Both the position numbers and the translations under genes were made by a program. A stretch of DNA of 64,000 bases, from IMG/VR virus record IMGVR_UViG_3300027708_003081. The stretch is one strand, 5' to 3'. Source of the DNA: a virus. Taxonomy: Duplodnaviria; Heunggongvirae; Uroviricota; Caudoviricetes. This document shows, piece by piece, positions 122 to 50,431 of this stretch. The notes beneath the pieces were generated by a model. That model was not told the DNA's origin and ran no database searches. It saw nothing but the letters and a program-made list of their open reading frames with translations. The first letter of the stretch is position 1. The number at the start of each line of letters is the position of its first letter.

Positions 122-451
122 TTAAATGTTTTTCCACCTAAAAAAGTCATATGTTTCTCTAAAATCAGGTGTGATTCCCTCCAACTCTAAATGTTGTTCC
201 ACCCAGTCTTTTATAAGTTGTTTAGTTTCATCATAATCTAACGAAAACATATTTGATATATTACGCCAAATTGAGAATGGAACTCTCATCTCACCTGATT
301 TTTCCAATTCTAACATCACCTCATCATCTTTTTTCCAAAATTTAGAGTGCTTATATTTTGCCGATTCAACTTCATACATATCCCCAAATAAGTAATCCAA
401 ATACTTAAACTCTAATTTCCTCATTTGATTCTCTGTTATTAAAATCTTCAT
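122..451 (-). CDS. MKxxITENQ-family paralogue 1, with a C-terminal repeat-spacer-encoded tail
   Basis: ORF track; highly similar to 492-794, 835-1200, 1205-1534 and the N-terminal half of 49628-50431. Confidence 0.85.
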   Translation of the reverse strand: MKILITENQMRKLEFKYLDYLFGDMYEVESAKYKHSKFWKKDDEVMLELEKSGEMRVPFSIWRNISNMFSLDYDETKQLIKDWVEQHLELEGITPDFRETYDFFRWKNI

Positions 452-491
452 AATTTTTATATTAAACGTTGTTCCACCTATAAACGTAAAG

Positions 492-794
492 TTAAATTGG
501 TATTAAGGGTATAATTCCCTCCAATTCTAAATGTTGTTCCACCCATTCCTTTATAAGTTGTTGTACTTCATAAGAATCCAATGAAAACATATTTTTAATA
601 TCTTTCCAAATTCTATTTGAAACATACAACCTACCTGATTTTTCCAATTCTAACAATATCTCCTTATTATCTTTTATAAAATATCTTACATCAGGATATT
701 TTTTTGATTCCACTTCATACATATCCTCAAATAAGTAATCCAAATACTTAAACTCCAATCTTCTCATTTGATTTTCTGTTATTAAAAACTTCAT
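492..794 (-). CDS. MKxxITENQ-family paralogue 2
   Basis: ORF track; its stop codon lies inside the 29-nt spacer. Confidence 0.85.
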   Translation of the reverse strand: MKFLITENQMRRLEFKYLDYLFEDMYEVESKKYPDVRYFIKDNKEILLELEKSGRLYVSNRIWKDIKNMFSLDSYEVQQLIKEWVEQHLELEGIIPLIPI

Positions 795-834
795 AATTTT
801 TATATTAAACGTTGTTCCACCTATAAACGTAAAG

Positions 835-1200
835 TTAAATTGGTATTAAGGGTATAATTCCCACCAACCCTAAACGTTGTTCCATCAAAGTCATGCCAGT
901 CTTGATTAAGCTGTTGGGTGTGACCCCCACCAACCCTAAACGTTGTTCCATCCAGTCTTTTATAAGTTGTTGAGTTTCATAATAATTTAATGAAAACATA
1001 TTGGAAATATCACTCCAAATTGAACGTAAAACCCACAAATCACCTGATTTTTCCAATTCTAACATCACCTCATCATCTTTTTTCCAAAATTTAGAGTGCT
1101 TATATTTTGCCGATTCAACTTCATATATGTCATCAAATAAGTAATTCAAATACTTAAACTCCAATCTTCTCATTTGATTTTCTGTTATAATGTATTTCAT
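835..1200 (-). CDS. MKxxITENQ-family paralogue 3, with two repeat units
   Basis: ORF track; MEQRLGLVG(V/I)(T/I)P occurs twice, 22 aa apart. Confidence 0.85.
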   Translation of the reverse strand: MKYIITENQMRRLEFKYLNYLFDDIYEVESAKYKHSKFWKKDDEVMLELEKSGDLWVLRSIWSDISNMFSLNYYETQQLIKDWMEQRLGLVGVTPNSLIKTGMTLMEQRLGLVGIIPLIPI

Positions 1201-1204
1201 AATT

Positions 1205-1534
1205 TTAAATGTTGTTCCACCACCAGGATAATTTGGGTTCGGCAGGCGGTGGTGTGATTCCCCCCAATTCTAAATGTTGTTCCACCCATTCCTTTATAAG
1301 TTGTTGAGTTTCGCGATTTTCCAAAGAAAACATATTGGAAATATCATTCCAAATTGAATGTAAAACCCATAATCTGTCTAATTTTACCAATTCTAATACA
1401 ACCTTATCACCTTTCTTCCAAAATCTAGAATTAGGATAATGTTTTGACTTAACTTCATACATATCCCCAAATAAGTAATCCAAATACTTAAACTCCAATC
1501 TTCTCATTTGATTTTCTGTTATTAAAAACTTCAT
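1205..1534 (-). CDS. MKxxITENQ-family paralogue 4
   Basis: ORF track; TATTTATA motif just upstream (1539-1546, minus strand). Confidence 0.85.
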   Translation of the reverse strand: MKFLITENQMRRLEFKYLDYLFGDMYEVKSKHYPNSRFWKKGDKVVLELVKLDRLWVLHSIWNDISNMFSLENRETQQLIKEWVEQHLELGGITPPPAEPKLSWWWNNI

Positions 1535-1548
1535 AACATATAAATATA

Positions 1549-1575
1549 AAAAAAGGAGCGTTTTTCGCGCTCCTT
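1549..1575 (-). terminator. Rho-independent terminator
   Basis: Stem AAGGAGCG/CGCTCCTT (1553-1560 and 1568-1575) followed by a T-run on the minus strand. Confidence 0.7.
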
Positions 1576-1596
1576 CACCACATAAGTTTTTAAGTA

Positions 1597-1755
1597 TTAT
1601 TTTTGTGTTTTGTTAACGTTATAATACTTCTCAATTGTTTTTTTAATTGAAGATTTTACGTCCTCACTAATCACCCTATCCTGTTTAGGTGCAGGATTTG
1701 GTTGAGGGGGTGGAGGAGGTGGTGGATTTTGATTGCCTTTGCAGCCACAAGCCAT
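1597..1755 (-). CDS. Small MACGCK-type proline-rich protein, 52 aa (not in the ORF track)
   Basis: Translates as MACGCKGNQNPPPPPPPQPNPAPKQDRVISEDVKSSIKKTIEKYYNVNKTQK*; fills the gap between the endonuclease and the terminator. Confidence 0.75.
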   Translation of the reverse strand: MACGCKGNQNPPPPPPPQPNPAPKQDRVISEDVKSSIKKTIEKYYNVNKTQK

Positions 1756-1772: not shown

Positions 1773-2363
1773 TTAGTTTATTATTTTGAATTTATGTTTG
1801 TAACAAGTTTTACGAATACATTTACTTTTTCCACCACAATTGACTTCTTTACCTCTTAAACTACTTGATAATTTCATTCTAATATTCCTTAAACTTGCTT
1901 TAGTAAATCCATTATCATATAAATAGTTTGCAGCCTCAAATAAAGTTTCAAATATATATTCTCTTTCAGTTTCTATATTTATTAATGCAAATTTTTCAAA
2001 ATTATTATTTTTCTTTAAATTATATTTTGAAAGTTGAATCTTGGTTTTGTCTGTTAATACATTTCTTCTACTATTACTAACAAGACATAAATTATATCCA
2101 AATTTCATATCGTTAGTTTTATTTTCTATAATATAATAATTTTCTTTTTCAACTAAATCTTTTTTATCGCACATTTCTATAATATCAAAAATAAAATTTT
2201 CTTTACCATCTCTATCATAAGAACTCTGAAGGAATTTATTATCGTGAATTTTTTTTTGTAACATCCAAAAATGTTTTTCTTTTCTTTTTTTAATATTCAC
2301 AGAACTTCCTATGTATATTTTATTATTTTTGGTGTTAGTTATTTTATATATTCCGCATCCCAT
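1773..2363 (-). mobile_element. Free-standing GIY-YIG homing endonuclease
   Basis: N-terminal GIYKITN...KIYIGSS motif followed by R...H, typical of phage Seg-like enzymes. Confidence 0.85.
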
Positions 2364-10015: not shown

Positions 10016-12007
10016 ATGAAAAAAATCACATTATTACTTTCGTTATTGTTTATGACGGTGTTATTCACGTCATTAAAAATAACAAGTAATCCAAATTGCC
10101 CAACAGGGTATTCAACGGCTCCATCACTAAATGGTACAACTGTAAGGAATTGTACAAGTTGTCACGGAGATTATTCATTAAACACGGCTGGTGGAGGAAT
10201 TACGGTAACAGGATTACCAACAACATTTACTCCAGGTACTGCATATCCTTTTAGTGTAAAGGTAACTCATTCAGCTGCGAACAGAACAGTATGGGGTGTT
10301 GCAATTAAAGCGGTGGATACATTAACTCATGCAGTTATTGGAACTTGGACTACAACAAATCCAAACACATCAATTAAAGGAACTCCAACAATTGCAAATG
10401 GTAATTATGAGTTGAGTCATGCAAATGCCGCAACATCAACCGCTACTAACACTTACACTTATTCTAATTTAACTTGGACAGCACCGGCGTTACCAACTGC
10501 GGTACAATCAAGAGTTAAGTTTTATGTTTCTGCGGTTGCTGGTAACAGTAGTGGTGATGAAGCTGGTGATTATGTTTACTCAACATCATTAACTTCAAAT
10601 CAGTATGTTGCTCCAACTCCTTGTACATTTACTTACGGACAATGGACAACTTGTTCTAATGGTACACAAACAAGAAGTTACACAACAAGTCCGGCAGGAT
10701 GTACAGGAACTCCACCCGCAGATTCAATTCAAAGAACTTGTTCAGTTCCTTGTACTTTCACATATGGTGCTTGGACAACTTGTTCTAATGGAACACAAAC
10801 AAGAAGTTATACAACATCACCAGCAGGTTGTACAGGTACACCTCCAACAGATAGTATAACAAGAACTTGTACGGTAGTTCCGCCCACATCATTACCAACA
10901 CCTGTAACAATCACAGGAACAATAAATCCTGGCGTTTGTGATACTATAAGAACATTTACTGTTCAAAACCAAAGTAATGTATTTTATGCTTGGGTAATTA
11001 GTGGTGTTGGAAATTACATTACTAATGGACAGGGAACAAATGTATTGACTGCGGTTGTTAAAGCGGGAGGAAGTGTTACAGTATCATTAAGTAATACTGC
11101 AGGTTCAATCCCGTCAACAAGTTTGGCGTTCACTAAAGCAGTTCCACCAACTCCAACGGCTATGAATGGTAGTTTGGCACCTTGCCCTAACAGTACATTT
11201 ACTTATTCATTAACAAATCCTTTACCAAGTGCAACACAAGTTGCTCCAAATGTATTTAGATGGACAACACCAGCATTTACTACAATAACTTCAGCAAATG
11301 CTGATAGTTCACAAATTACATTAAATTTTGGTGGTAGTTATGTTGGTGGTACATTATCGGCTAAAGGTGTTACAAACTGTGGTGCTGTAGGTAGTGCTAA
11401 ATCAATAGTTTTAGCGCCAACAAAGGCGGTGGATGTAGTTTCAAGTACAGGATTTTGGAATGGTTGTATTGGTAATTCAGTAAATTATTTTGTAGTTTCA
11501 CCAGTTACTTCAATCTCACCTGTTTCAGGATATAGATGGACAACACCAGCATTTACAAGTATAACTTCAGCAAACGCTGATAGTTCACAAATCACATTAC
11601 AATTTAACACAGGTTATAAGGGTGGTTCACTTAAAGTCCAAAGCTCAACAAGTTGTGGTTCTCTTGGAACTGCGGTTTCAAAAACTTTAACACATATTGG
11701 ATGCGCAGCGGGACAGAGAAATGGTATTGAAGAAGAAACTCTTGTAACTGATTTAGTAAGTTTATTTCCTAATCCAAATAATGGTGAATTTACAATTAAT
11801 ATTCAAACAGGAGATAAAATAACTCAAAAGGCTTTAATTCAAATAATTAATTTACAAGGAAATCTTTTAGACCAATATACTGTTGGTGTTAATGGTGGTG
11901 TTATTAGTAAAAAAATAACAAACACTTCATTAAAAACTGGTATGTATTTTATTACTTATATTATTGGTGATAAGAAGAAAACAATTAAGATGTATGTAAC
12001 TCAATAA
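10016..12007 (+). CDS. T9SS cargo protein: signal peptide, CxxCH/Reeler-like (choice-of-anchor V-like) domain, two TSP1-like repeats, PKD-like domains and a T9SS C-terminal sorting domain
   Basis: RNCTSCHG; duplicated CTFTYG(Q/A)WTTCSNGTQTR; duplicated RWTTPAFT.ITSANADSSQITL; C-terminal SLFPNPNNGEFTI...LKTGMYFI...KMYV. Confidence 0.85.
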   Translation: MKKITLLLSLLFMTVLFTSLKITSNPNCPTGYSTAPSLNGTTVRNCTSCHGDYSLNTAGGGITVTGLPTTFTPGTAYPFSVKVTHSAANRTVWGVAIKAVDTLTHAVIGTWTTTNPNTSIKGTPTIANGNYELSHANAATSTATNTYTYSNLTWTAPALPTAVQSRVKFYVSAVAGNSSGDEAGDYVYSTSLTSNQYVAPTPCTFTYGQWTTCSNGTQTRSYTTSPAGCTGTPPADSIQRTCSVPCTFTYGAWTTCSNGTQTRSYTTSPAGCTGTPPTDSITRTCTVVPPTSLPTPVTITGTINPGVCDTIRTFTVQNQSNVFYAWVISGVGNYITNGQGTNVLTAVVKAGGSVTVSLSNTAGSIPSTSLAFTKAVPPTPTAMNGSLAPCPNSTFTYSLTNPLPSATQVAPNVFRWTTPAFTTITSANADSSQITLNFGGSYVGGTLSAKGVTNCGAVGSAKSIVLAPTKAVDVVSSTGFWNGCIGNSVNYFVVSPVTSISPVSGYRWTTPAFTSITSANADSSQITLQFNTGYKGGSLKVQSSTSCGSLGTAVSKTLTHIGCAAGQRNGIEEETLVTDLVSLFPNPNNGEFTINIQTGDKITQKALIQIINLQGNLLDQYTVGVNGGVISKKITNTSLKTGMYFITYIIGDKKKTIKMYVTQ

Positions 12008-26344: not shown

Positions 26345-29300
26345 ATGGAATTCTTTATAAAGAAAAATGCGACGCTACCTGTTTTAAAGATGAAGGTGGT
26401 TGACGATGGAAAAGATGGACACAAAGAATTATTGAAACTTTTAGAAGTTTCAACCATTTATTTTACTATGATTGATACTGCGACGGGTATCAGTAAAATT
26501 ACTTCTGCAAAAGGTTATATTACATCAATAAATCTACCCGAAGGTTCAACACCTGAATATTATTTATGTTACAAATTTAAAACAAAAGATGCAAATAAAA
26601 TTGGTAGATATCAAGGTTCTTTCATTCTAAAGTATGGTTTAGATACTTTAATCTTACCAATAAGAGATGAGTTATATGTTAATGTTATTCAAAGTGTAAA
26701 TGATGAACCAATTCCAAATCTTTATGGTTTTAAAATTCCTGTTAAATATTTAACTGACCCAGATTTTAAGATAACACCACCTATTAGTGATAGTCCAGGT
26801 CCTTTTACATACATAAGTGCAGATAATAATATTGTTAGCATAGTAGGAGATATCGTTAAAATTAATGGTATTGGACAAACTACTGTTACTGCAATACAAC
26901 AACCGACAAGTGAGTTTGGAACCGCATCAATTATTGCAATATCTGTTGTAATATTGGCACCTACACCCTCTAATACAAGAACCCCGACTAAAACACCAAC
27001 AAGAACCCCTACAAATACACCAACAAATACTCAAACTTCAACAAATACTCCTACTAATACTTCAACACAAACACAAACACCTACTAATACTTCAACACAA
27101 ACACAAACACCAACACAAACGCCAACTAATACTTCAACACAAACACCAACACAAACGCCAACTAATACTTCAACACCAACACAAACTCAAACTCCTACTA
27201 ATACAGAAACACCAACACAAACTCAGACTCCTACTAATACAGAAACCCCAACACAAACTCAAACACCGACTAATACTGAAACGTCAACTCAGACACCAAC
27301 CAATACAGAAACATCAACTCAGACACCAACCAATACAACAACACCGACACCGACTGAAACCGCATTTCCGCCTGAAATTAGATACTTCCAAAGTTGTTGT
27401 CCACCAAATTTTTATATAAAAGTTTACGGTATTCCTTTTTACGAATTACCAACATTAAATGAAGTTTATTATGTTGATAGTACAGGATTTGTTGGTTGTG
27501 CAACTAATATTGATTTACCGGTAGGAACCCCTTACATAATAGGTGGTTACAATTCATTATTCTTACAAATTGATTGTACAGATTGTAATTCAATATTTAT
27601 TTGTCCTACACAGACACCAACTCAAACTCCTACACAGACACCAACACCAACTAATACAGAAACGCCAACTCAAACTCAGACACCAACTAATACAGAAACG
27701 CCAACTCAAACTCAGACACCAACTATTACTTCAACTGAAACGCCAACTCAAACACAGACACCAACAAATACAATAACTCAGACACCAACAAATACAATAA
27801 CTCAGACACCAACAAATACAATAACTCAAACACAAACTCAAACGTCAACCAATACACAAACTCCTACTAATACACCAACCAATACTGCAACACAAACTCA
27901 AACCTCTACAAATACTCAAACGCCAACTAATACTTCAACACAAACACAAACTCAAACACCAACTAATACTGAAACCCCAACTAATACCCCAACTCAAACA
28001 CCAACAAATACAATAACTCAAACGCCAACTAATACCGCAACCCAAACTCAAACACCAACAAATACAATAACTCAAACGCCAACTAATACCACAACTCAAA
28101 CACAAACTCAAACGCCAACTAATACAGAAACTCCAACAAATACCACAACTCAAACACCAACAAATACCACAACTCAAACACCAACAAATACCACAACTCA
28201 AACACAGACACAAACCCAAACGCCTACTAACACTTCAACTGAAACCCCAACTCAAACACAGACACAAACCCCAACTAATACCGAAACTTCGACGCAAACC
28301 CCAACGCAAACCGCAACTCAAACTCCAACAAATACTACAACTAATACCGCAACTCAAACACCTACAAATACTTCAACTCAAACTCCAACAAATACTTCAA
28401 CTTCAACTCAAACACCTACTAATACTATAACTCAAACCCCAACAAATACTTCAACACAAACGCAGACACAAACCCCAACTCAAACGCCTACTAATACCGT
28501 AACTCAAACTCCAACTAACACTACGACCCCAACAAACACACAAACTCAAACCCCAACCAATACAGAAACCCCAACAAACACACCAACTAACACTACAACA
28601 CAAACACCAACAGCAACATATTATCCACCTGAAATACGTTATTTCTCTGCTTGTTGTTATCCATATGATATTATAAAGGTTTATTCAATACCATTTGCCG
28701 TCGCAACAGGAATAACGGTAAATAATACCTATTATATTTCAGGAACAGGTACTTTTAATGGTTGTGCAACAAATATATCAAGTGTACCAGAACCAATTCC
28801 TGTTAGTGTTTATCCATATGATATATTAACAAGTTATGTTTCTGGACAAACTAATTGTTTTGATAATTTATGTGTAAATGTTGCACCACCTTGTCCCACA
28901 CATACACCAACTACTACACAAACACCAACAAATACCTCAACACAAACATCTACACAAACACCAACAAATACATCTACACAAACATCTACACAGACGCAAA
29001 CTCCAACTAAAACTCAAACACCAACAAATACATCTACACAAACATCTACGCAGACGCAAACCCCGACTAAAACCCCAACTCAAACGCCTACTAATACACA
29101 AACGTCAACTCAAACATCTACGCAGACGCAAACCCCGACTAAAACCCCAACTCAAACGCCTACTAATACACAAACGTCAACACAGACGCAAACTCCAACT
29201 AAAACATCTACACAAACACCAACTCAAACGCCTACTAATACACAAACGTCAACACAGACGCAAACTCCAACTAAAACATCAACTCAAACCCCAACAAATA

Positions 29301-32300
29301 CTCGAACAAATACACCAACAAATACTTCAACTCAAACCCCAACTAAAACATCTACACAAACACCAACAAATACTCCTACAAATACACCTACAAATACATC
29401 AACACCAACAAATACTCCTACAAATACAATAACACCTACTGTTACTAAAACACAAACTCCAACACGTTTACAAGGACAAATAACTTTTAGTGGTTGTTGT
29501 TCAGGTAAAACAATAAGATTGGGTGGAACTATACCTGGAGGCACATTCATTCTTGGAAATACATATTATCTTGAAGTTTCATTCTCATCATCAGGTGCTC
29601 CTGGATTTACAGGTTGTACAATTGCGGGACTTGGAAGTTCTGCAGAAATATATAATTATAATTTAGTAACAACTAAAATAGATTATGGTACAGGATGTAC
29701 AGATTGTACGAATGCTAATATTTGTCCAACACCAACACCAACCCCAACACCAACACCAACCCCAACTAATACTCCGACTAACACACAAACACGCACGCAA
29801 ACCCCTACCACTACTCAAACTCCAACACAAACTCAAACACAAACTCAAACACCTAGTTTGACTGCAAAAGAAACACCGTTAGCGACACAAACCCCCACCT
29901 CAACTCAAACTCCTACTACAACACAAACATCAACTCAAACACCTACTCAAACTCAAACACCAACTAAAACGCCAACCACAACTCAAACACCAACTAATAC
30001 ACCTACTAATACCACAACACAAACACCAACTAATACCACAACACAAACACCAACTAATACCACAACACAAACTCCGACAAATACCACAACACAAACTCCG
30101 ACAAATACCACAACACAAACTCCGACAAATACCACAACTCAAACGCCTACTAATACCACAACTCAAACTCCGACACAAACTCAAACGCCTACAAATACCC
30201 CAACAAATACTATAACTCAAACCCCTACTAATACTACAACACAAACATCTACACAAACACAAACACCAACTAATACAACAACACAAACACCAACACAAAC
30301 ATCTACACAAACACAAACATCTACACAAACACAAACGCCAACTAATACTACAACACCAACACCAACTCAAACCTATTTACCTCCAGTTATTTCATATTTT
30401 GAACTTTGTTGTCCACCTAATGATAATATAAAAGTTTTCAGTATACCACAATTATTAACACCTTCACCTGGTTCAATTTATTATATTGAAACTTTAACAT
30501 TTAGTGGATGTGGAATATGTTTACCTAGTTTACCAGAACCACCGTTCACATCAACACTACAATACCAAGGATTAACCTTAATATCTGGTAATTGTGATAC
30601 TTGTCTTACAAAATACACTTTAGTTTGTCCTACTGTTACCCCAACACCAACTATGACAAGTACACCAACTCAAACTCAAACACAAACTCCAACAAATACT
30701 TCAACACAAACTCCAACAAATACTTCAACACAAACACAAACACCTACAAATACAGAAACTCAAACACAAACACCAACTAATACAAGTACACAAACACCAA
30801 CTAATACAAGTACACAAACACCAACTAATACCGCAACTAATACTTCCACAAATACACCAACACAAAGTCAAACATCCACTCAAACACCAACTAATACAAG
30901 TACACAAACGCCAACTAATACAAGTACACAAACACCAACACAAAGTCAAACATCCACTCAAACACCAACTAATACAAGTACACAAACACCGACACAAACT
31001 GCAACTCAAACACAAACACCAACTAATACAAGTACACAAACACCAACTAATACAAGTACACAAACACCAACTAATACAAGTACACAAACACCAACTAATA
31101 CAAGTACACAAACACCAACTAATACAAGTACACAAACGCCAACACCAAGTCAAACTCAAACACAAACACCAACAAATACTCAAACACCAACAAATACTCA
31201 AACACCTACAACAACTCAAACACCAACCGCAACATATTATCCACCTGAGTTCCGTTACTTTTTAACTTGTTGTCCACCCGGCGAATATATAAGACTATAT
31301 TCAATACCATATTTTAATGCAACAGGTATAACATTTGGTAACACATATTATATTGAAAGTCCAGGTTTTAGTGGCTGCGCAACAAACGTAGGTGTAGTTG
31401 CAACATTTACTCCATATGCTTGGGGCTCAGCCAGTTTACAATCTGGAGGATGCCTTGGAAGTTTCTGTCAAAATAATGTACCACCTTGTCCAACTCAAAC
31501 ACCTACACAAACACCTACACAAACCGCAACTCAAACTCCTACTAATACTGCAACTAACACACAAACACCAACTCAAACACCTACACAAACACCTACACAA
31601 ACCGCAACTCAAACTCCAACAAATACTCAAACTCCTACTAATACTGCAACACAAACTAAAACGCAGACACCTACACAAACCGCAACACAAACACCAAGTC
31701 AAACATCTACTCAAACCCCGACTAATACCGCAACACAAACACCAAGTCAAACATCTACTCAAACCCCTACTAATACTGCAACACAAACTAAAACTCAAAC
31801 ACCGACTAATACCGCAACACAAACACCAACAAATACACAAACCCCAACAAAAACCGCAACACAAACTCCAACAAATACTGCAACACAAACTCCAACAAAT
31901 ACTGCAACACAAACACCTACTAATACTCAAACACCAACAAATACACAAACTCCAACTAATACAACAACTCAAACACCGACTCAAACAACACCTGTAATTG
32001 ATGTTTTAACTTTAAGATTTAATTCTACAGGAAACACATTATCTAGACTTAGCATTACACCTGCTATAAATAAAGTTATTGTTGATTGGGGTGATGGAAC
32101 AGTTATAACATATAATCTTGCTGGAAACTTTACACATACTTACGTAGGTACTGGTAATTTTACAGCAACTGTTAGTATATACGATGAGGCAGGAAGAATA
32201 AATTTATTTACGGTAGGTCAAAACTCAAGATTATATGACATATCAGGGCTTAATAAATTAACATCATTAACACAATTAGATTTAACAAGAAACATAATAA

Positions 32301-33307
32301 CAACATTTAATTTCGCTCTACCAACATCACCTTTGTTAAGAATAAATTTCCCTAATAATCAATTAACATCAACTGAAATTGATAATTCATTAATTTATTT
32401 AAATACTACTTTGGGTGTTGCACCAGCTCCACCACCATCATATTCGATTGATTTAAGAAATCAACCTGGTTGTTTAAGTCTTGGAGGACCTGGAGACACC
32501 GCAAGATTAAGTCTTGTATCAAAAGGGTGGGTTGTTAATTATACCGCTTGTTCTACACCAACTCCAACACCAACAAACACACAAACACCAACAAACACAC
32601 AAACTCCGACAAATACACAGACACCAACAAATACACAGACACCAACAAATACACCAACTAATACCAACACACCAAGTTCAACTCAACCACCGGCTTGTGA
32701 TATTACATCAACAATTGCAAATTTAAAATATCAAATATGTACAAATATTACAGGTTCTAATAGTGGATATAGTAAGATTTATGTAAATGGTAATCTATTG
32801 GTTAATACTAATAATCCGTCATCATCATCGGGTGGATATACATTAAATGCTGGTGACTCAGTTACATTTGAAGTTTTAACGGATGATACTAACGCACTTA
32901 AAGAAATATCAGTTTATAATGAAACAATCAGTACTTATTTGTATAATAATATTGGATATTATATTGGAGAAACTTATAATTTAACATTTACAGTAAGTTC
33001 TAATGGTGTTTATTCATTAAAACATTTGGATTTACCAAATTCGGTTGGAAATATTGACGTTGTTAACACATCATTATGTCCAAATAGAATTTTTACATAT
33101 TCTGTCGCTTCTTTACCACAATATTCAACAAATATTAATTGGACAATACCAAGTAATGGAACTTTGATAAGTGGACAGGGAAGTATAAGTATAACAGTTA
33201 GTTATCCAACAACTATTGTCGATGGGTTTGTTACTGCACAACCATATAGAGATTGTGCTTTGGGTTCAATTAAAAGTTCTGTAATTAGATTACCGAGTTG
33301 TCCCTAA
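26345..33307 (+). CDS. Giant 2320-aa mucin-like protein: BppU-like N-terminus, TQTPTN repeats, five Cys-rich YF..CC modules, PKD, LRR and a C-terminal PKD-like domain; probable virion fibre or adhesin
   Basis: MEFFIKKNATLPVLKM N-terminus; extensive TP/TQ repeats; DWGDG; LDLTRN LRR. Confidence 0.85.
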   Translation: MEFFIKKNATLPVLKMKVVDDGKDGHKELLKLLEVSTIYFTMIDTATGISKITSAKGYITSINLPEGSTPEYYLCYKFKTKDANKIGRYQGSFILKYGLDTLILPIRDELYVNVIQSVNDEPIPNLYGFKIPVKYLTDPDFKITPPISDSPGPFTYISADNNIVSIVGDIVKINGIGQTTVTAIQQPTSEFGTASIIAISVVILAPTPSNTRTPTKTPTRTPTNTPTNTQTSTNTPTNTSTQTQTPTNTSTQTQTPTQTPTNTSTQTPTQTPTNTSTPTQTQTPTNTETPTQTQTPTNTETPTQTQTPTNTETSTQTPTNTETSTQTPTNTTTPTPTETAFPPEIRYFQSCCPPNFYIKVYGIPFYELPTLNEVYYVDSTGFVGCATNIDLPVGTPYIIGGYNSLFLQIDCTDCNSIFICPTQTPTQTPTQTPTPTNTETPTQTQTPTNTETPTQTQTPTITSTETPTQTQTPTNTITQTPTNTITQTPTNTITQTQTQTSTNTQTPTNTPTNTATQTQTSTNTQTPTNTSTQTQTQTPTNTETPTNTPTQTPTNTITQTPTNTATQTQTPTNTITQTPTNTTTQTQTQTPTNTETPTNTTTQTPTNTTTQTPTNTTTQTQTQTQTPTNTSTETPTQTQTQTPTNTETSTQTPTQTATQTPTNTTTNTATQTPTNTSTQTPTNTSTSTQTPTNTITQTPTNTSTQTQTQTPTQTPTNTVTQTPTNTTTPTNTQTQTPTNTETPTNTPTNTTTQTPTATYYPPEIRYFSACCYPYDIIKVYSIPFAVATGITVNNTYYISGTGTFNGCATNISSVPEPIPVSVYPYDILTSYVSGQTNCFDNLCVNVAPPCPTHTPTTTQTPTNTSTQTSTQTPTNTSTQTSTQTQTPTKTQTPTNTSTQTSTQTQTPTKTPTQTPTNTQTSTQTSTQTQTPTKTPTQTPTNTQTSTQTQTPTKTSTQTPTQTPTNTQTSTQTQTPTKTSTQTPTNTRTNTPTNTSTQTPTKTSTQTPTNTPTNTPTNTSTPTNTPTNTITPTVTKTQTPTRLQGQITFSGCCSGKTIRLGGTIPGGTFILGNTYYLEVSFSSSGAPGFTGCTIAGLGSSAEIYNYNLVTTKIDYGTGCTDCTNANICPTPTPTPTPTPTPTNTPTNTQTRTQTPTTTQTPTQTQTQTQTPSLTAKETPLATQTPTSTQTPTTTQTSTQTPTQTQTPTKTPTTTQTPTNTPTNTTTQTPTNTTTQTPTNTTTQTPTNTTTQTPTNTTTQTPTNTTTQTPTNTTTQTPTQTQTPTNTPTNTITQTPTNTTTQTSTQTQTPTNTTTQTPTQTSTQTQTSTQTQTPTNTTTPTPTQTYLPPVISYFELCCPPNDNIKVFSIPQLLTPSPGSIYYIETLTFSGCGICLPSLPEPPFTSTLQYQGLTLISGNCDTCLTKYTLVCPTVTPTPTMTSTPTQTQTQTPTNTSTQTPTNTSTQTQTPTNTETQTQTPTNTSTQTPTNTSTQTPTNTATNTSTNTPTQSQTSTQTPTNTSTQTPTNTSTQTPTQSQTSTQTPTNTSTQTPTQTATQTQTPTNTSTQTPTNTSTQTPTNTSTQTPTNTSTQTPTNTSTQTPTPSQTQTQTPTNTQTPTNTQTPTTTQTPTATYYPPEFRYFLTCCPPGEYIRLYSIPYFNATGITFGNTYYIESPGFSGCATNVGVVATFTPYAWGSASLQSGGCLGSFCQNNVPPCPTQTPTQTPTQTATQTPTNTATNTQTPTQTPTQTPTQTATQTPTNTQTPTNTATQTKTQTPTQTATQTPSQTSTQTPTNTATQTPSQTSTQTPTNTATQTKTQTPTNTATQTPTNTQTPTKTATQTPTNTATQTPTNTATQTPTNTQTPTNTQTPTNTTTQTPTQTTPVIDVLTLRFNSTGNTLSRLSITPAINKVIVDWGDGTVITYNLAGNFTHTYVGTGNFTATVSIYDEAGRINLFTVGQNSRLYDISGLNKLTSLTQLDLTRNIITTFNFALPTSPLLRINFPNNQLTSTEIDNSLIYLNTTLGVAPAPPPSYSIDLRNQPGCLSLGGPGDTARLSLVSKGWVVNYTACSTPTPTPTNTQTPTNTQTPTNTQTPTNTQTPTNTPTNTNTPSSTQPPACDITSTIANLKYQICTNITGSNSGYSKIYVNGNLLVNTNNPSSSSGGYTLNAGDSVTFEVLTDDTNALKEISVYNETISTYLYNNIGYYIGETYNLTFTVSSNGVYSLKHLDLPNSVGNIDVVNTSLCPNRIFTYSVASLPQYSTNINWTIPSNGTLISGQGSISITVSYPTTIVDGFVTAQPYRDCALGSIKSSVIRLPSCP

Positions 33308-36983: not shown

Positions 36984-39900
36984 ATGGATTGTAAAAAGTA
37001 CGTAGTCACAAATACGAGTCAAGAAATAGTAACAATAAATTACAGACGTTGCGATGATTTAATGTGGGTTTACCAAGAAACTGTAAACCCAGGTCAAACT
37101 CAAAACGTTTTTTTTATTGAAGGAACATTCTCCACGCCAAGACCTGATTATCTTTCGATAACAAATGAAGGAAATTTTCCTCCAAAATCAGATATAATTT
37201 TAATTCAATTTTCATCAGCATACTTCCAAGGTTCAATTGGTGCAACTTACTTAATAGATGCCGGAGTAATATTAGATTTTGATTTAACTGTTACTTTTGT
37301 TGATATTATAGATACAACAAACGGTCCTGTATATATAAAAGCTACAGGTACAATACTAAAAGGTACTTCAAGTGTGTATGTTCAAACAACAGTTGAAGGT
37401 GATTACAATACCTTAACAGGAAAAAATTCAATCCAAATTGCAGAAGTTTCTGGTGACATTCCAGCATCATTAACAATCGCTCAAAGTCCATTAGCACCTA
37501 CGCCTGAAGTCTATACGTTTTATAAAGTTACTTCTTGTTGTGATGGTTCGACAGCATATGTTAATTTACCTGATACAACTCCTGTTGGAGGATTTACTCC
37601 TCTTGTTTTAGGTGGGACGTTAATTACTTGTTATAAAATTGAATCAGTTATTTCAGGTTATCCACCCCCAGGTTCGACGATTGTTCTTTGGTTAGCTCGT
37701 GTACCAGAGGCAACCTGCCAAGATTGTATTCAAAGAAATTTTACTCCTTGTCCAGGTAGAAATGTTATGTTTGAAGTAATATCTTGTTGTGATGGTAGAA
37801 GTGAGTTTGTTATACTACCTGATATAATAGATAGAACAAGAACATATATTTGTACAACAATCACAAACCCAAGGGCGGGATGTTATTATATAAGAGACCT
37901 TAATGATACAATGCCGGCAACACTTACTTGGAATTCTCAAAGTTATGATAATTGTGATGATTGTACTTCTTATTTACCTTGTGATGGAACATCACCAAAT
38001 TGTGGTTTAGCGGCAATTAAATTTGGATATGGATGTAGTGGTCGTACAGATACGGTTAAATATTTTGATTGTTGTGGTAATTTTGTTATTGATACAAATT
38101 GTAATGATTTTCCATACAAATATGTTTGTATTGATTATATATTAACTAGGGCTTATAGTTTTTCTGGTTTAATATTTAATAGTATCAATTGTCCAAACCC
38201 ACCAGTTTGTCCTCCACAACCACAATTTGGTTGTTATAGTGGATATACAATTAATCCTGGTCAAGGGTATTCTTACGTATCTTGTTGTGCTGATTTAACG
38301 GTAGACCCACCACAAATAACAAGTGGTAATGCGCCAACAGACCAACCTTTATTAGTATATGTTCTTGCTGAGTATCCATATACAAATATAAGTTTGAATG
38401 GACCTGTTTCATCAATACCCGATGTTTGTCCATCTGCAACACCAACTAGTACTCCAACTAAAACACCAACACCCACTAACACAAAAACGCCTACTAACAC
38501 TGCAACCAAAACATTAACACCTACTAAAACACCAACTAACACAAAAACACCAACTAACACAAAAACACCAACACCAACACCAACAGCAACTTTGGGTTGC
38601 GAAGTGGTCACAGTTCATTCTGAATGTGGGAACGTAATTGCAACACCAAATATTATAATAAACGGAAAACAGTCATTTACTTTCAATTTATCAAATTTTT
38701 ATGATTGTATAATATATTGGGATAATATTACAAATAGATGGATTGTTAGAAATAGTACATTAGGATTGGATGGTTCTTATTTACCGTTAAATACAACTTT
38801 ACCAATAGGTAATTTAAGTCAATGGATTAATATAAGTGGACCTGTAGAATGTATAACAGATGATACAAGTTTTTATACTGAATTAACTTCAAACGGACCT
38901 TGTCCAGAAACTCCAACTCCAACCCCAACAAAAACTCCAACAAAAACTCCAACTCAAACACCAACAAGAACTCAAACTGCAACACAAACACCCAGTCCCA
39001 CAAGTCCTGAAGTTATTTGTTTTACATATAATCTTCCTGATGGAATTCATACACAAACCGTTCCTTCTGCAGGATATTTTAATGGATTACCTTATTATCA
39101 AATTGTAACTCCGGGATTTCAAAATATTTTTGTTTATTCTGAAACACCAATTGGTATACAGTGGACAGTCACATATGGTACAATTGGCGCTGTACCGGAA
39201 GGATATTTACCGTGGAATAGTTCATCATCAACTTTTTATCCTTTAAGTACTAACGGTTGGGTAAACACATTAAATGATATTCAAATAATAAGTTCAGTTT
39301 TAGGTATTTGTCCAACATCTACCCCAACATCTACCCCAACATCTACCCCAACTAAAACATCAACACCTACCCCAACTAAAACATCAACACCACCAAATAC
39401 TCCGTCAAAAACACCAACAGGTACACCGGCATCAACTCAAACACCTACTCCAACAAAAACACAAACTCAAACGCCCACTAAAACATCTACTCCAACAAAT
39501 ACTACAACAAAAACACAAACTCCAACAAACACTACAACAAAAACGTCTACACAAACTCCAACAAAAACGTCTACACCTACTAAAACATCTACACAAACCC
39601 CTACTAATACTCCAACACAAACTAAAACGTCTACACAAACACCTACTAAAACATCTACACCTACAAAAACATCTACACCTACCAAAACACCGACTAACAC
39701 GCCAACAAAAACATCTACACCAACTAATACTCCAACTCAAACTCCAACTCATACTTTCTATCCACCAGAAATTAGGTATTTCTCAGGTTGTTGTTATCCT
39801 AATAATATTATACAAGTGCATAGTATTCCATTTATTGAATTACCAACATTAAATGAAGTTTATTATGTTGATAGTACTGCGTTTGTTGGTTGTGCAACTA

Positions 39901-42900
39901 ATGTTGATTTACCTGTCGGAGTTTCTCCAACATTAGTGGGGGCATATAATTCATTATTTCTTCAACTTGATTGTAATGACTGTGATGCAATATACCCTTG
40001 TCCAACACAAACACCTACCAATACTTCAACTCCAACACAAACACCTACCAATACTTCAACTCCAACACAAACACCTACCAATACTTCAACACAAACTAAA
40101 ACACAAACACAAACACCTACCAATACTTCAACACAAACTCAAACTCCTACTAATACCTCAACACCTACAAATACTGTAACCAAAACGCAAACTCAAACAT
40201 CAACTCAAACTCCAACAGTAACAAAAACAAACACAAGAACTCCTGTACCTACTAAAACATCAACTCCAACACCAACTAAAACTCCAACCCAAACTAAAAC
40301 TCCAACAAATACTTCTACTAATACACAAACTCCAACAAATAGTTCAACTCCAACAACAACACCAACACCAACATTATGTTGGAATTGTGACCAACAATAT
40401 ACTTGGAGTTATAGCGGAGAGTGCTACACGACAATTACTGGTAATACAACACCAGGATTTTTAAGTTATACATATCAAGGGTTTAGTCAATATGGGGCAA
40501 CAACAGGAGGTACTGTATTTTATGATAGTGGTTATTCTATAGGCGGTACAGGAACAATAGTTGGAACAAATAATCTATATCCGTATTGGTCAGGATTGGC
40601 AACAAGTTCAAGCGGACCTTGCAACGATAGTAATATTTTTGTACCTGGTGTTCCTGCAAATACGTGGGTAGGTAGTAGAGTGTGCATTCAAGGAAATTCT
40701 GGATTACCATACTATGTTGGTATTGGTCTTGGAGGTGCAAGAGAAATAAAAATAATAATAAATAATGTTGTTGTTTTAGATACAACTCAAGCACCACTCA
40801 CACACCCTGTAAATAAATGGTATGTATATCCTATAACTCTTCAAACGGGAAGTAACATTATTGAAATTTTAGGTATTAATACTGTGCCAGGATTTTTTGG
40901 TTTTGGTCTTCAAATTTATCAAAATACATTACAAGAATTAACGGGTACAAATCCTCCAAATGTTGTATTTAATTTTTATGATTATCACGTAAATAATACT
41001 TGGCTTAAAGCAGATTTAGTTAGAACTTTAAATGGAGCAATTATAAGTGATGGACCAACTTGTGGGTATGGATACAATTATTCAATATGTAATCACCAGT
41101 GTGAACAAATAATTTACTGTCCAGGACACACACCACTACCAACTCAAACACCAACAACTACACCAACTCAAACACCAACAACTACACCAACTCAAACTCA
41201 AACTCCAACACCAACAAATCTTATAAATACTGCTTATACTTTTCAAAAGTGTTGTGATGGAAGCTTTTTCACTTTACAAGGTATGCCTTTTATTATGATA
41301 AATCCTGTGACTTATTATGTTGTAGGATTGAATAATGACGGTAGTTTAGGGTTTGAAGGTTGTGCTCAAGTCGTTTTTGGACAATCAAATATAGTATATA
41401 ATTTTAGTTCAATTACTCAGACTGGTTTTGATTGTATAAGTTGTCAGAATGACCATCCTTGTCCAACTTTAACACCAACAGCCACTCCATCACAAACATC
41501 AACTCAAACTCCAACACCAAGTGTCACATCAACTAATACACCAACAAATACAACTACACCAACAAATACAACTACGCCAACAAATACTCAAACAAATACA
41601 AATACACCATCACAAACTCCGACTAATCCAATTATAGTTAATGAATGTAGTACATTACTATTGTCCCTTAATGGTACAGGAAATAATTCACTTTACAAAT
41701 ATGATGTGAATAATCTTTCAGTTTTAGTTTACTTAACTGATTTCCCACCAGATGAGGTTTCACAAGTTTTGGCTTCAACAAATGACAGATTATTGATTGC
41801 GAATTATTATCCCGCAGGAAATTTAACTCATTTTTATGAATATATAATAACTTTACCTCAATTTTCAATTAATTTTAACAGAGTAGTTGATGTTGATTTA
41901 AGTAATATGTCTAAAGGACTTTTTGCAATAACTAATGATATATTAGTAACAGTTTGGGAACCGCCAGCATACCCGGCTCAAAGAATCCAAATATATCGCT
42001 TTTTAACTAACAATCCTAGATGGAGAATTATTGGACCTTTAGGTACAAACAGAAAAGTTACTGGTGATATGATTGTAACAAATGGGGGACAAGAAATAAT
42101 TTTAAATAAAGATATAAATACTAATTTATATTATTTAAGCGTTTATGTTTATAATTCAAATATATTCCAATTTGAAGTAGAATTACCACAACAAGGAGAA
42201 ACAATATTCCAACAAAATGGAAGATTTTATATAATTTTCACAGGGGGAGATGTTTATAGTATAAACACAACATATCCTTATACTTTAGAATTAAGTGGTA
42301 ACTGTGAAAATAGTTCAATAATAGACGGTACACAAAGATATGGATGTTATACAGTTAATTTTACTCCACCACCTGTTGTTAGATATTTTAGTGGATGTTG
42401 TTACCCTTATGATACATTCTCGATAAACTCAATACCTGTTGAATCAGCACCAAACGTAGGAGAAATATACTATTTCCAAATTAATAATGGTTTCACAGGA
42501 TGTGCGACTTGTATTAATGAAGTATCAGTTCCAATCAGTTATAATTATTTTGGATTGAGTTCCAGTGGTCCATTCGCCAATTGTAATGAATGTTTAAACT
42601 TACAAGGAGCTTGTCCTACACACACACCAACAACAACTCCAACACAAACAACAACTCCAACTAATACATCAACCCAAACTCAAACACCGACAAATACAAG
42701 AACTCCAGTACCTACAAAAACATCAACACCAACACAGACACCTACAAACACATCTACACCTACAAATACGAATACTCCTACAAATACAACAACACCAACT
42801 AATACAGCAACTAATACACCCACAAATACCAATACACCTACAGTTACACAAACACGACAACTTTCAGCTTACTTCTCAGGATGTTGTAACGGATTTACAT

Positions 42901-43904
42901 TTGTTTTAAATAATATACCTGAGAACGACTATCCAATTTTAGGAAATATATATTATGTTGCGACATTAAGTTATAGTGGATGTGCAACTTGCGTAATTAA
43001 TCCTGGTGGTGTAGTAACATCTTACGATTATCAACAAACACTAATTGAATTTTACACTTGCTCAAGTTGTTTGACAGTAAAACCTTATGAAAATTGTCCA
43101 TCATTTACACCAACACCAACACCCACAAATACACCCACAAATACCAATACACCTACAGTAACAGTTACACCTTCACAAACTATTCCTTGTTTAACTGATA
43201 TTATAGTGGAGGCATTTTATATTGCTAACGCTACGGACCTTTTTATATTACCTAATGGATATGTACATCCTTGTACTAATACTATAGGTGTTCACGGTTG
43301 TAACTTGGCACTCCAATCAGTTTACGCGAACGGTGTATTTTTAGGACATATTAGAATAAATAATTCCAACGGCGCTTTATCAGGGACGCAGACATCGAAC
43401 GGGACTTATATTTGTGGTGACTATCATAACACATTACCTTGGGGTGGAAATTCAGCTTCAAGATATGAAAGAATTGTCATACCAAGTGCTCAAGTTAATA
43501 TGTTAGCAAGTATGAACGCGAATAGAACAATTGATTTTTCTTACATATTTACTATGAGCGAATATTCTGCGTGTTGTGGAACTCTTTGTTTACCTCATAG
43601 AGACCAAACTTGGTATAGAATTTCTTTAAATTCTGGTAGAGTTTTATTTAATGCGTGTCCTGCTTTGGGTCTAACCCAAACACTTGTTTATACAGTACAA
43701 GTTGGAAATGTGGAATGTGTGCCAGTATCGTCAACACCAACACCAACACCAACCGCAACAGTTGGATATATACCACCACCAACACCATCGACAACACAAA
43801 CACCAACACATACTCCAACACATACATCAACGCCTACTCAAACAGAAAGTCAAGGTATTGTACACGGAAGAACATTATTTATGAAAATGAGAAAAGGAAT
43901 TTAA
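36984..43904 (+). CDS. Giant 2306-aa Thr/Pro-repeat protein with multiple Cys-rich modules
   Basis: MDCKKYV N-terminal domain; SCC/GCC modules; TP repeats; a possible beta-propeller-like segment near 41640-42330. Confidence 0.85.
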   Translation: MDCKKYVVTNTSQEIVTINYRRCDDLMWVYQETVNPGQTQNVFFIEGTFSTPRPDYLSITNEGNFPPKSDIILIQFSSAYFQGSIGATYLIDAGVILDFDLTVTFVDIIDTTNGPVYIKATGTILKGTSSVYVQTTVEGDYNTLTGKNSIQIAEVSGDIPASLTIAQSPLAPTPEVYTFYKVTSCCDGSTAYVNLPDTTPVGGFTPLVLGGTLITCYKIESVISGYPPPGSTIVLWLARVPEATCQDCIQRNFTPCPGRNVMFEVISCCDGRSEFVILPDIIDRTRTYICTTITNPRAGCYYIRDLNDTMPATLTWNSQSYDNCDDCTSYLPCDGTSPNCGLAAIKFGYGCSGRTDTVKYFDCCGNFVIDTNCNDFPYKYVCIDYILTRAYSFSGLIFNSINCPNPPVCPPQPQFGCYSGYTINPGQGYSYVSCCADLTVDPPQITSGNAPTDQPLLVYVLAEYPYTNISLNGPVSSIPDVCPSATPTSTPTKTPTPTNTKTPTNTATKTLTPTKTPTNTKTPTNTKTPTPTPTATLGCEVVTVHSECGNVIATPNIIINGKQSFTFNLSNFYDCIIYWDNITNRWIVRNSTLGLDGSYLPLNTTLPIGNLSQWINISGPVECITDDTSFYTELTSNGPCPETPTPTPTKTPTKTPTQTPTRTQTATQTPSPTSPEVICFTYNLPDGIHTQTVPSAGYFNGLPYYQIVTPGFQNIFVYSETPIGIQWTVTYGTIGAVPEGYLPWNSSSSTFYPLSTNGWVNTLNDIQIISSVLGICPTSTPTSTPTSTPTKTSTPTPTKTSTPPNTPSKTPTGTPASTQTPTPTKTQTQTPTKTSTPTNTTTKTQTPTNTTTKTSTQTPTKTSTPTKTSTQTPTNTPTQTKTSTQTPTKTSTPTKTSTPTKTPTNTPTKTSTPTNTPTQTPTHTFYPPEIRYFSGCCYPNNIIQVHSIPFIELPTLNEVYYVDSTAFVGCATNVDLPVGVSPTLVGAYNSLFLQLDCNDCDAIYPCPTQTPTNTSTPTQTPTNTSTPTQTPTNTSTQTKTQTQTPTNTSTQTQTPTNTSTPTNTVTKTQTQTSTQTPTVTKTNTRTPVPTKTSTPTPTKTPTQTKTPTNTSTNTQTPTNSSTPTTTPTPTLCWNCDQQYTWSYSGECYTTITGNTTPGFLSYTYQGFSQYGATTGGTVFYDSGYSIGGTGTIVGTNNLYPYWSGLATSSSGPCNDSNIFVPGVPANTWVGSRVCIQGNSGLPYYVGIGLGGAREIKIIINNVVVLDTTQAPLTHPVNKWYVYPITLQTGSNIIEILGINTVPGFFGFGLQIYQNTLQELTGTNPPNVVFNFYDYHVNNTWLKADLVRTLNGAIISDGPTCGYGYNYSICNHQCEQIIYCPGHTPLPTQTPTTTPTQTPTTTPTQTQTPTPTNLINTAYTFQKCCDGSFFTLQGMPFIMINPVTYYVVGLNNDGSLGFEGCAQVVFGQSNIVYNFSSITQTGFDCISCQNDHPCPTLTPTATPSQTSTQTPTPSVTSTNTPTNTTTPTNTTTPTNTQTNTNTPSQTPTNPIIVNECSTLLLSLNGTGNNSLYKYDVNNLSVLVYLTDFPPDEVSQVLASTNDRLLIANYYPAGNLTHFYEYIITLPQFSINFNRVVDVDLSNMSKGLFAITNDILVTVWEPPAYPAQRIQIYRFLTNNPRWRIIGPLGTNRKVTGDMIVTNGGQEIILNKDINTNLYYLSVYVYNSNIFQFEVELPQQGETIFQQNGRFYIIFTGGDVYSINTTYPYTLELSGNCENSSIIDGTQRYGCYTVNFTPPPVVRYFSGCCYPYDTFSINSIPVESAPNVGEIYYFQINNGFTGCATCINEVSVPISYNYFGLSSSGPFANCNECLNLQGACPTHTPTTTPTQTTTPTNTSTQTQTPTNTRTPVPTKTSTPTQTPTNTSTPTNTNTPTNTTTPTNTATNTPTNTNTPTVTQTRQLSAYFSGCCNGFTFVLNNIPENDYPILGNIYYVATLSYSGCATCVINPGGVVTSYDYQQTLIEFYTCSSCLTVKPYENCPSFTPTPTPTNTPTNTNTPTVTVTPSQTIPCLTDIIVEAFYIANATDLFILPNGYVHPCTNTIGVHGCNLALQSVYANGVFLGHIRINNSNGALSGTQTSNGTYICGDYHNTLPWGGNSASRYERIVIPSAQVNMLASMNANRTIDFSYIFTMSEYSACCGTLCLPHRDQTWYRISLNSGRVLFNACPALGLTQTLVYTVQVGNVECVPVSSTPTPTPTATVGYIPPPTPSTTQTPTHTPTHTSTPTQTESQGIVHGRTLFMKMRKGI

Positions 43905-49627: not shown

Positions 49628-50431
49628 ATGAAAGATAGATTAAGAAAAGTTCAGTTTAAGTATTTGGATTACTTGTTTGAGAATATATGTTGGGTTAAAT
49701 CAAAAAATTATCCTAATTCTACCTTCTTCAAAAAAGATGATAAGGTGATATTGGAATTGGAAAATTCTGGTACATTATGGGTTTTATATTCAGTTTGGAA
49801 TAGTATTTCTGATACATTTTCTATTCAATACGAAGAAACTCAACAACTTATAAAGGAATGGATGGAAGCACAATTAAAATTGGGGGAAGTTGCACCGAGT
49901 CGTGATGCGGAAGAATATTGCATCGAGGTGGAATCTCAATTAAAACAGGTGGAAATTACGCCCACGAATTGTTTATATAGTAAAAAATCTTGGATAGAAG
50001 CACAATTAAAATCTGCGGAAGTTACACCACATACCAGTATTACAAATCAATTGATGAGGGTGCAAGAAGAATTAAACTCGGTGGAAGTTACACCACATTC
50101 ATTGTTTTTATTTTCGGGCTCTGATATGGAAGAAGAATTAAAATCGCAGGAAATTACACCTGTTGGGCGGTGGCTAAGGATTTCATACGAGACGGAAAAA
50201 GAATTAAAATCGGAGGAAGTGACACCAAGAAACGCCATAGCACCACCATATAGTTGGACAAACTTAAAATCAGAGGAAATAAAACCTACAATATCAACTT
50301 CTTATCGGTTAGAAGAAAAATTAAAATCAGAGGAAATAAAACCTGTTAAATTTTATGAAACCGAATTACAGTTTTTGGAAGAACAATTAAAACAGGAGAT
50401 ATTAAAATTTAATAAGAATGAAAAAAAATAA
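49628..50431 (+). CDS. Fifth paralogue of the 122-1534 family, with a nine-unit repeat-spacer C-terminal tail
   Basis: FKYLDYLF...LELE.SG.LWV...ETQQLIKEW core; ExxLKSxE(V/I)TP every 22 aa; host-type promoter at 49565-49596. Confidence 0.85.
   Translation: MKDRLRKVQFKYLDYLFENICWVKSKNYPNSTFFKKDDKVILELENSGTLWVLYSVWNSISDTFSIQYEETQQLIKEWMEAQLKLGEVAPSRDAEEYCIEVESQLKQVEITPTNCLYSKKSWIEAQLKSAEVTPHTSITNQLMRVQEELNSVEVTPHSLFLFSGSDMEEELKSQEITPVGRWLRISYETEKELKSEEVTPRNAIAPPYSWTNLKSEEIKPTISTSYRLEEKLKSEEIKPVKFYETELQFLEEQLKQEILKFNKNEKK
49861..50396 (+). CRISPR. In-frame, degenerate CRISPR-like array (36-nt repeat with mostly 30-nt unique spacers)
   Basis: Repeats start at 49861, 49927, 49993, 50059, 50125, 50191, 50251, 50308 and 50374 (partial). 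Spacer lengths are 30, 30, 30, 30, 30, 24, 21 and 30 nt. The first repeat is GATGGAAGCACAATTAAAATTGGGGGAAGTTGCACC. Confidence 0.5.

Follow-up and report, generated by a model that had tools for sequence, protein, structure and literature searches.

How do units with the layout of a clustered regularly interspaced short palindromic repeat (CRISPR) array come to lie inside the coding genes of a phage, and what might they do there? The question is raised by locus A, a block of four tandem paralogous genes on the minus strand (122-1534) of a 64,000-nucleotide (nt) window of the IMG/VR virus record IMGVR_UViG_3300027708_003081 (Caudoviricetes), the window being the whole stretch of DNA that was analysed. 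It forms part of a roughly 258-kb genome of an uncultured giant lake-water phage with 32% guanine plus cytosine (G+C). The best explanation, and a probable one, is that each gene is a module in which a small phage protein gene is joined to a CRISPR-type mini-array, which is most likely built in trans and may mimic an array of the host.

Repeat-spacer tails on four tandem genes

The 3' end of each paralogue consists of a 36-nt repeat, a 29-30-nt spacer and then the first 15 nt of the repeat once more, and these half repeats sit immediately upstream of the ATG of the following gene (Table 1). This arrangement had been described in an initial annotation made from the letters alone, whose coordinates and sequences proved accurate. 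The geometry and the copy number of the repeat are both well above chance, nine copies of its 15-mer being found in the block at no more than one mismatch, compared to a shuffled expectation of 0.6 copies at up to two mismatches in the whole window. No cas genes were found near the arrays of locus A, and no terminators are predicted within the four-gene block.

The segments of the paralogues differ markedly in their conservation. Gene bodies are 78-87% identical, repeats 75-94% and half repeats 87-100%, while the spacers, at 7-38%, are at the random level. In genes 4 and 1, translation enters the half repeat one frame off and yields a short peptide before a stop, and in genes 3 and 2 the half repeat is located 3' of the stop codon; the reading frames agree in this respect with what had been claimed for it. 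Gene 3 possesses one repeat-spacer unit more than the other paralogues, with two full repeats and two spacers, and the reported identity between its distal spacer and that of gene 2 is confirmed at 29 of 29 positions. The initial annotation took this additional unit for a leader-proximal acquisition. Gains on the gene side do occur in relatives, as described below, and to that extent the proposal stands; the second repeat of gene 3 is, however, a chimera of its own first repeat and the repeat of gene 2, and recombination between arrays therefore explains the unit as well as a fresh acquisition would.

Table 1. Positions of the features of locus A, of the terminator upstream of it and of the second locus of the family (genes according to the listing of open reading frames, ORFs)
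Feature	Position	Strand	Description	Basis
Gene 4	1205..1534	-	First of the operon, 109 amino acids; small alpha/beta domain, last 12 codons are the first repeat	ORF; AlphaFold, predicted local distance difference test (pLDDT) 87; 76 close homologues
Gene 4 repeat	1251..1286	-	36 nt, encodes VEQHLELGGITP	
Gene 4 spacer	1222..1250	-	29 nt, 55% G+C versus 32% in the phage; unique	
Gene 4 truncated terminal repeat	1201..1221	-	First 15 nt (1221-1207) identical, about 21 nt similar; WNNI and stop; abuts the ATG of gene 3	
Gene 3	835..1200	-	121 amino acids, two-spacer array	ORF
Gene 3 repeat 1	917..952	-	36 nt	
Gene 3 proximal spacer	887..916	-	30 nt; the sole spacer of the 96%-identical orthologue L002	
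Gene 3 repeat 2	851..886	-	36 nt; chimera of repeat 1 (positions 1-27) and the gene 2 repeat (28-36)	
Gene 3 distal spacer	822..850	-	29 nt; same as the gene 2 spacer; stop codon inside	
Gene 3 truncated terminal repeat	807..821	-	15 nt, 3' of the stop	
Gene 2	492..794	-	100 amino acids	ORF
Gene 2 repeat	508..543	-	36 nt	
Gene 2 spacer	479..507	-	29 nt; stop inside; also in L024 and L022	
Gene 2 truncated terminal repeat	464..478	-	15 nt	
Gene 1	122..451	-	Last of the four, 109 amino acids	ORF
Gene 1 repeat	168..203	-	36 nt	
Gene 1 spacer	139..167	-	29 nt; common to L025 and L048	
Gene 1 terminal repeat	124..138	-	15 nt, truncated and degenerate; WKNI and stop	
Intrinsic terminator	1552..1576	-	Directly upstream of gene 4	
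Second locus of the family	49628..50431	+	267-amino-acid ORF; same head domain and about nine translated repeat-spacer units	

Kinship of the repeat and turnover of the spacers

The repeats of locus A are related to those of type VI-B (Cas13b) arrays of Bacteroidota. The Bergeyella zoohelcum repeat quoted in the initial annotation is letter-perfect in strain ATCC 43767, where it adjoins a gene for a Cas13b of 1224 amino acids, and the same repeat is found exactly, with 30-nt spacers, in two Capnocytophaga species. The phage repeat agrees with it at 7 of 8 positions of the 5' end, at 8 of 8 in the TTGGAGGG block and at 8 of 9 of the 3' end. The TTGGAGGG block lies in a different codon phase in the two repeats, and the likeness is thus one of nucleic acid rather than of a shared peptide. 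When compared with six natural VI-B repeats from Flavobacteriales cas13b loci, the phage repeats match at 20-25 of 36 positions, the natural repeats match each other at 16-28 of 36, and the 99th percentile for shuffled sequences is 18. Judged by these matches, the phage repeat appears as close to verified VI-B repeats as those are among themselves, in agreement with the original proposal of CRISPR-type units akin to VI-B, and the repeat family may descend from such repeats or copy them. More distant members of the family have the canonical GTTG...CAAC repeat ends. The compensatory GGTG/CACC ends to which attention had been drawn are not kept family-wide, since GATG...CACC and GGCG...CACC variants also occur. 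In the natural VI-B arrays at L010, L067 (Bergeyella) and L066, many repeats are split by an insert of about 52 nt, which gives a spacing of 81-83 nt; these split units are presumably the known VI-B "long repeats".

Homologues at 29-37% identity carry arrays at the same point, directly after the ...QQLIKEW codons, and these arrays combine GTTG...CAAC repeats with frame-breaking spacers of 28-31 nt and a truncated terminal repeat. In L051 there are five spacers, 30-31 nt in length, with frame breaks as well as stops; L049 has two. In L073, two modules of gene plus array follow one another in tandem, with five spacers in one and three in the other, all of 28-31 nt. The lengths of 53 spacers cluster tightly (30 nt in 30 cases, 29 nt in 11, 31 nt in 10, and 28 and 32 nt in one each), such that 51 of the 53 measure 29-31 nt. 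Their G+C content of 0.36, compared to 0.311 in the phages (z of about 3.8), hints at an outside source.

Closely related loci exchange their spacers as whole units. The gene bodies of L049 and L051 are 96.4% identical and the downstream flanks 93%, yet the two have zero spacers in common. In the pair L034 and L059 (98.2% identical), the proximal spacers are different and the following four are common to both, and gene 3 of the window shares repeat and spacer with the 96%-identical L002 and carries one extra distal unit. In the second locus of the phage (49628-50431) and its ten orthologues, the units nearest the gene are unique and the distal ones shared. Orthologues are thus distinguished by whole-spacer replacement and gain on the gene side and not by gradual drift, which was the outcome that the initial annotation had favoured. 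Among 76 close homologues, the second repeat is in frame +1 in 26, in frame 0 in 12 and in frame +2 in one, and it is unread behind a stop in 27; being read in any frame or not at all, it is conserved at the level of the nucleic acid. The half repeat, for its part, follows the full repeat of its own array (1.16 versus 2.9 mismatches). Taken together, these features of the relatives are those of CRISPR arrays that undergo polar insertion and trimming by repeat recombination, and not those of a drifting protein repeat.

Proposed array build-up and mimicry, and competing explanations

A precedent for arrays that are filled from elsewhere is provided by Flavobacterium columnare, whose VI-B array lacks cas1 and cas2, is filled in trans by the Cas1-Cas2 of a type II-C system, holds many self-derived spacers and is transcribed from the leader towards the array (PMC8092290). 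By analogy, the phage arrays are most likely filled in trans by Cas1-Cas2 of host II-C machinery. The host integrase would insert new units at the gene-proximal repeat, and the 3' coding sequence of the gene, with its last 12 codons forming the first repeat, would stand in for the leader, a position which had already been suggested for the gene body and which the present comparison supports. Older units would be lost through recombination of the full with the truncated repeat. Such a cycle of proximal gain and recombinational loss would hold the arrays at one spacer and would let each half repeat copy its own full repeat.

The benefit to the phage can be proposed only tentatively: it is possible, rather than probable, that the modules, by resembling the host array, serve as decoys for either Cas13b or the integrase. 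In VI-B systems, the leader and first repeat give rise to an extraneous CRISPR RNA (crRNA), which upon overexpression sequesters Cas13b and lowers defence about 1000-fold (PMC13187072). The gene tail with the first repeat is the only unit present in every module, and mimicry is preferred because this constant unit is the counterpart of the extraneous crRNA. At the RNA level, it would supply a guide-repeat unit of the kind able to occupy Cas13b. At the DNA level, replicating phage genomes would present numerous look-alikes of the leader and repeat, and these could divert integrations from the host array.

Several results weigh against the proposed build-up and use of the arrays. Cas13b binding requires a repeat hairpin (PMC13187072), and the RNA of the window repeat has no significant hairpin (z of about 0 versus shuffled sequences). 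The inner CAA(C)/(G)TTG hairpin of the initial annotation amounts to 3-4 base pairs (bp), and the 5' half of the repeat has no partner for a GGAGGG stem, while the Bergeyella repeat RNA forms a 7-bp inner stem with a z of -2. Only one of the phage repeat variants tested, that of L062, has a good hairpin. The missing hairpin therefore counts against the RNA decoy and moves some weight to the DNA-level integrase decoy. A pattern scan of 185,579 species genomes revealed no cellular array with the phage's own repeat, the only array matches being those of Bergeyella and Capnocytophaga.

The sources of the spacers were likewise sought, and the searches extended over the window, every locus, ten related records in full, five scans of IMG/VR, and the genomes of 400 Flavobacteriales and 401 Bacteroidia. 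Among related phages, about 900 kb of DNA contained no protospacer for any of the 53 spacers; five spacer cores scanned in IMG/VR gave none either, and no source emerged for the locus A spacers in the Flavobacteriales genomes or for the G+C-rich spacer in the Bacteroidia genomes. The searches returned solely the arrays themselves or A+T-rich chance matches, and no shared protospacer-adjacent motif or protospacer-flanking site was found within this scope; the acquisition motif of F. columnare is TTTANNNNN. One spacer of L032 matched the cas13b genes of Bergeyella and Capnocytophaga in antisense at 18 of 19 positions, but the extended match fell to 22 of 30 and was absent from other cas13b genes, and it was set aside as chance. 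Profile searches for Cas13b, for which a positive control worked, and for Cas1 gave no matches in ten related phage fragments (5-64% complete), and Pfam found no Cas family in the eleven largest ORFs of the window, on which the Cas13b model itself was not run. Two of the checks that had been recommended at the outset, for protospacers and for cas genes, were both negative within these scopes. To these points should be added the extra unit of gene 3, for which recombination alone suffices, and the second locus of the family, which together with its orthologues is open for 97-206 codons through the arrays. Being translated matters at that locus, and pure mimicry does not predict this.

The main rival to mimicry is that the arrays exist to be translated. 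A CRISPR integrase, probably that of the host, might write captured DNA into the ORFs of a large phage gene family, the array being both a record and a generator of peptide segments, although this is rather unlikely. It would constitute an adaptive protein-diversification device derived from CRISPR adaptation, with locus A as its minimal one-cassette form and 49628-50431 as the expanded form. The more specific claim, that the integrase inserts captured pieces of 30 nt at the 3' end of the gene and that the phage profits from changing C-terminal cassettes on a fast-evolving protein, is unlikely. The second locus and its ten orthologues have no in-frame stop in these array codons, while the other two frames contain 11-25 and 3-10 stops. 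The array of L032 comprises seven identical repeats and eight unrelated spacers, all exactly 30 nt, in frame and stop-free. Shared cassettes differ by 49 synonymous versus 81 non-synonymous codon changes, which by estimate rather than computation is more synonymous change than would be expected of unconstrained sequence. In the gene bodies of the paralogues, non-synonymous codon changes outnumber synonymous ones by about 3:1, a ratio that resembles that of arms-race proteins and suggests that selection on the head domain is relaxed or diversifying.

Other loci of the family speak against such a role for the peptides. In locus A and the 76 close homologues, the spacer contains a stop in 27 cases, and the second repeat occurs in any of the three frames. 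The spacer stops match the chance rate for an A+T-rich stretch of ten codons, so that the tail is not under selection in locus A and translation of the spacers there appears incidental; the early suggestion that captured DNA diversifies the C-termini thus finds no support from selection at this locus. The frame-breaking spacers of the L051 and L073 arrays make read-through impossible, and the open frames of the second locus could instead serve to avoid polarity on the membrane-protein gene that follows.

A highly improbable explanation is that of ordinary coding tandem repeats, in which a C-terminal repeat of 22 codons would spread by slippage and unequal crossing-over, with fast-evolving linkers and no integrase. 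The first repeat is indeed coding, and W-x-E-x-x-L-x-L-x-G-[IV]-T-P is kept as a protein motif family-wide. Within arrays as well as between them, cassettes such as AIAPP..W reappear with point changes; gene 3 shows clear recombination of repeats, and tandem repeats in genes are known to give rise to false CRISPR calls (PMC5294841). However, the spacers that separate identical repeats are unrelated, both here and among the seven repeats of L032, and their lengths (28-32 nt) do not keep to multiples of three. The conservation of the second repeat in all frames and past stops, the 96%-identical orthologues with no common spacers, and a VI-B resemblance that lies in another codon phase and hence involves no shared peptide, also speak against a protein repeat.

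There is similarly little probability that the arrays are working guide arrays, producing crRNAs for a host Cas13b, or for a phage effector outside the sampled DNA, against competing phages or host transcripts. The direction of transcription and the orientation of the repeats fit the VI-B guide-repeat layout, and spacers followed by full repeats are found in gene 3, L051 and L073. This layout needs a full repeat 3' of the spacer, yet three of the four genes have no more than a repeat stump of 15-21 nt behind the spacer and would therefore yield no guide. The guide RNAs that had been envisaged for locus A are consequently reduced to a single candidate, the gene 3 spacer at 887-916. Moreover, the hairpin is missing from the repeats, neither the roughly 900 kb of related phage DNA nor the IMG/VR scans yielded a target, and Cas13 activation would shut down the cell that the phage needs. 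Integron attC sites (wrong order of core sites), mutagenesis of the diversity-generating retroelement type (spacers unrelated, not altered solely at A positions), translational bypassing, and a multi-core precursor of ribosomally synthesised and post-translationally modified peptides (frames broken in L051 and L073, no modifying enzyme among the neighbours examined) were considered and dropped.

Mimicry of a host array by modules that are filled in trans is accordingly retained as the preferred explanation. Its interest extends beyond a single locus, since the array and the gene are fused throughout a family that comprises about 820 protein clusters and belongs to jumbo phages of fresh water. 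The family offers a test case for the recognition of cas1-less VI-B arrays by a foreign integrase, for the possible disarming of Cas13b or of spacer acquisition by a phage through mimicry, and for a possible turn of CRISPR adaptation to the writing of protein sequence.

The phage, the gene family and known CRISPR systems

Pfam and PHROG searches of the window genes identified a GIY-YIG homing endonuclease, leucine-rich repeat (LRR) and PKD domains in large proteins, and a sorting domain of the type IX secretion system (T9SS). The last is located at the C-terminus of a phage protein with PKD-like domains (10016-12007, plus strand), and it points to a Bacteroidota host. The nearest relatives of the phage are IMG/VR and lake-metagenome contigs of 50-258 kb; the window DNA has no match in the GenBank phage collection. 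Public runs that contain locus A are freshwater and lake metagenomes, and assembled contigs of the gene bodies are present in one lake metatranscriptome. Locus A was recovered from three DNA runs as pieces broken at the repeats. Contigs from three DNA runs also connect position 35 to 1606, bypassing the whole four-gene block; this join, in which the intervening letters are unread and the shorter side comprises only 33 letters, may represent a variant that lacks the block or has other content in its place.

The paralogues have no match in Pfam, PHROGs or PADLOC, and Rfam matched neither CRISPR-DR nor any other family in 1-2000. A profile search collected 820 clusters at 50% identity, of which 131 have E <= 1e-10. 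The gene product is modelled confidently as an alpha/beta domain, and its final helix is predicted to extend into the first five codons of the repeat. No clear relative of solved structure was found in the PDB with Foldseek and a wide VIA-align search; the fold neighbours are virus-only ESM Atlas clusters and two uncharacterised proteins of AlphaFold clusters. The conservation seen at synonymous positions directly 5' of the repeat, which include an invariant CTT leucine codon in QQLIKEW, is indistinguishable from the general codon bias of the family.

The four-gene block is adjoined by the GIY-YIG homing endonuclease gene (1773-2363, minus strand), for which no connection to the repeats was found; the idea that they serve as its homing target was dropped. 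A small conserved ORF (1597-1755, minus strand; L003 2782-2940) begins with MxCGCKGNQN followed by 7-8 prolines, and in a related phage it occupies the syntenic position, likewise upstream of the paralogue block. At the second locus, the cassettes HTSITNQLMR, RNAIAPPYSW and VGRWL..SYE also occur in other phages in a different order, and a gene for a small membrane protein starts directly after the stop. Downstream of the translated array lies a gene with a KIHGTN motif (50780-51913, plus strand; L032 3323-4561), which we take to be an Rnl2-type RNA ligase motif, and its synteny with the array is conserved in orthologous loci. Further along the plus strand, ORFs of 2320 and 2306 amino acids (26345-33307 and 36984-43904) have no Pfam match, and a generic repeat scan indicated internal periodic repeats of about 66 nt in their region. 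A UvrC-like protein with GIY-YIG and UvrC RNase H endonuclease domains is encoded at 56777-58048 (plus strand).

The systems to which locus A can be compared each share part of its features. Genic tandem repeats mistaken for CRISPRs (PMC5294841) are likewise periodic repeats in an ORF, whereas the phage units have unrelated spacers of lengths other than multiples of three and a second repeat that is conserved out of frame. The cas-less arrays of huge phages (PMC7162821) also belong to jumbo phages, lack adaptation genes and often lack effectors, yet they are free-standing and non-coding. The gene tail with the first repeat has the guide-repeat layout of the extraneous crRNA (PMC13187072). Hosts silence theirs by means of a leader-repeat hairpin, while the predicted fold of the phage version argues against Cas13b binding.

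Viral mini-arrays and solitary repeat units, including the RNA anti-CRISPRs known as Racr (PMC10651486, PMC11656645), are cas-less repeat units on viral genomes as well, and mimicry of host repeats is a plausible use in both cases. Those known lie between genes, are non-coding and agree with host repeats at >=90%, whereas the phage units lie within ORFs of one gene family and are duplicated along with the gene. The survey of viral repeat units recovered every CRISPR type except VI and masked ORFs before the search (PMC10651486), and arrays embedded in genes would therefore have been missed; no paper describing arrays fused to a coding gene was found.

The closest resemblance is to the VI-B arrays of Bergeyella zoohelcum and Flavobacterium columnare (PMC8092290, bioRxiv 10.1101/092577). 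These likewise combine 36-nt repeats with spacers of about 30 nt and have a related 5' end, the TTGGAGGG block and a ..ATCACA(A/C)C 3' end, and they share transcription from the leader side, leader-proximal new units and the lack of their own cas1 and cas2. Locus A differs in that it is phage-borne with no cas13b found, its leader and first repeat are coding, and its repeat is devoid of the inner stem. Because the hairpin is missing and no effector is known, it is not filed as a member of VI-B, and it represents instead a variant of phage-borne CRISPR arrays, in which the array mostly holds one spacer and ends in a repeat stump that touches the next gene.

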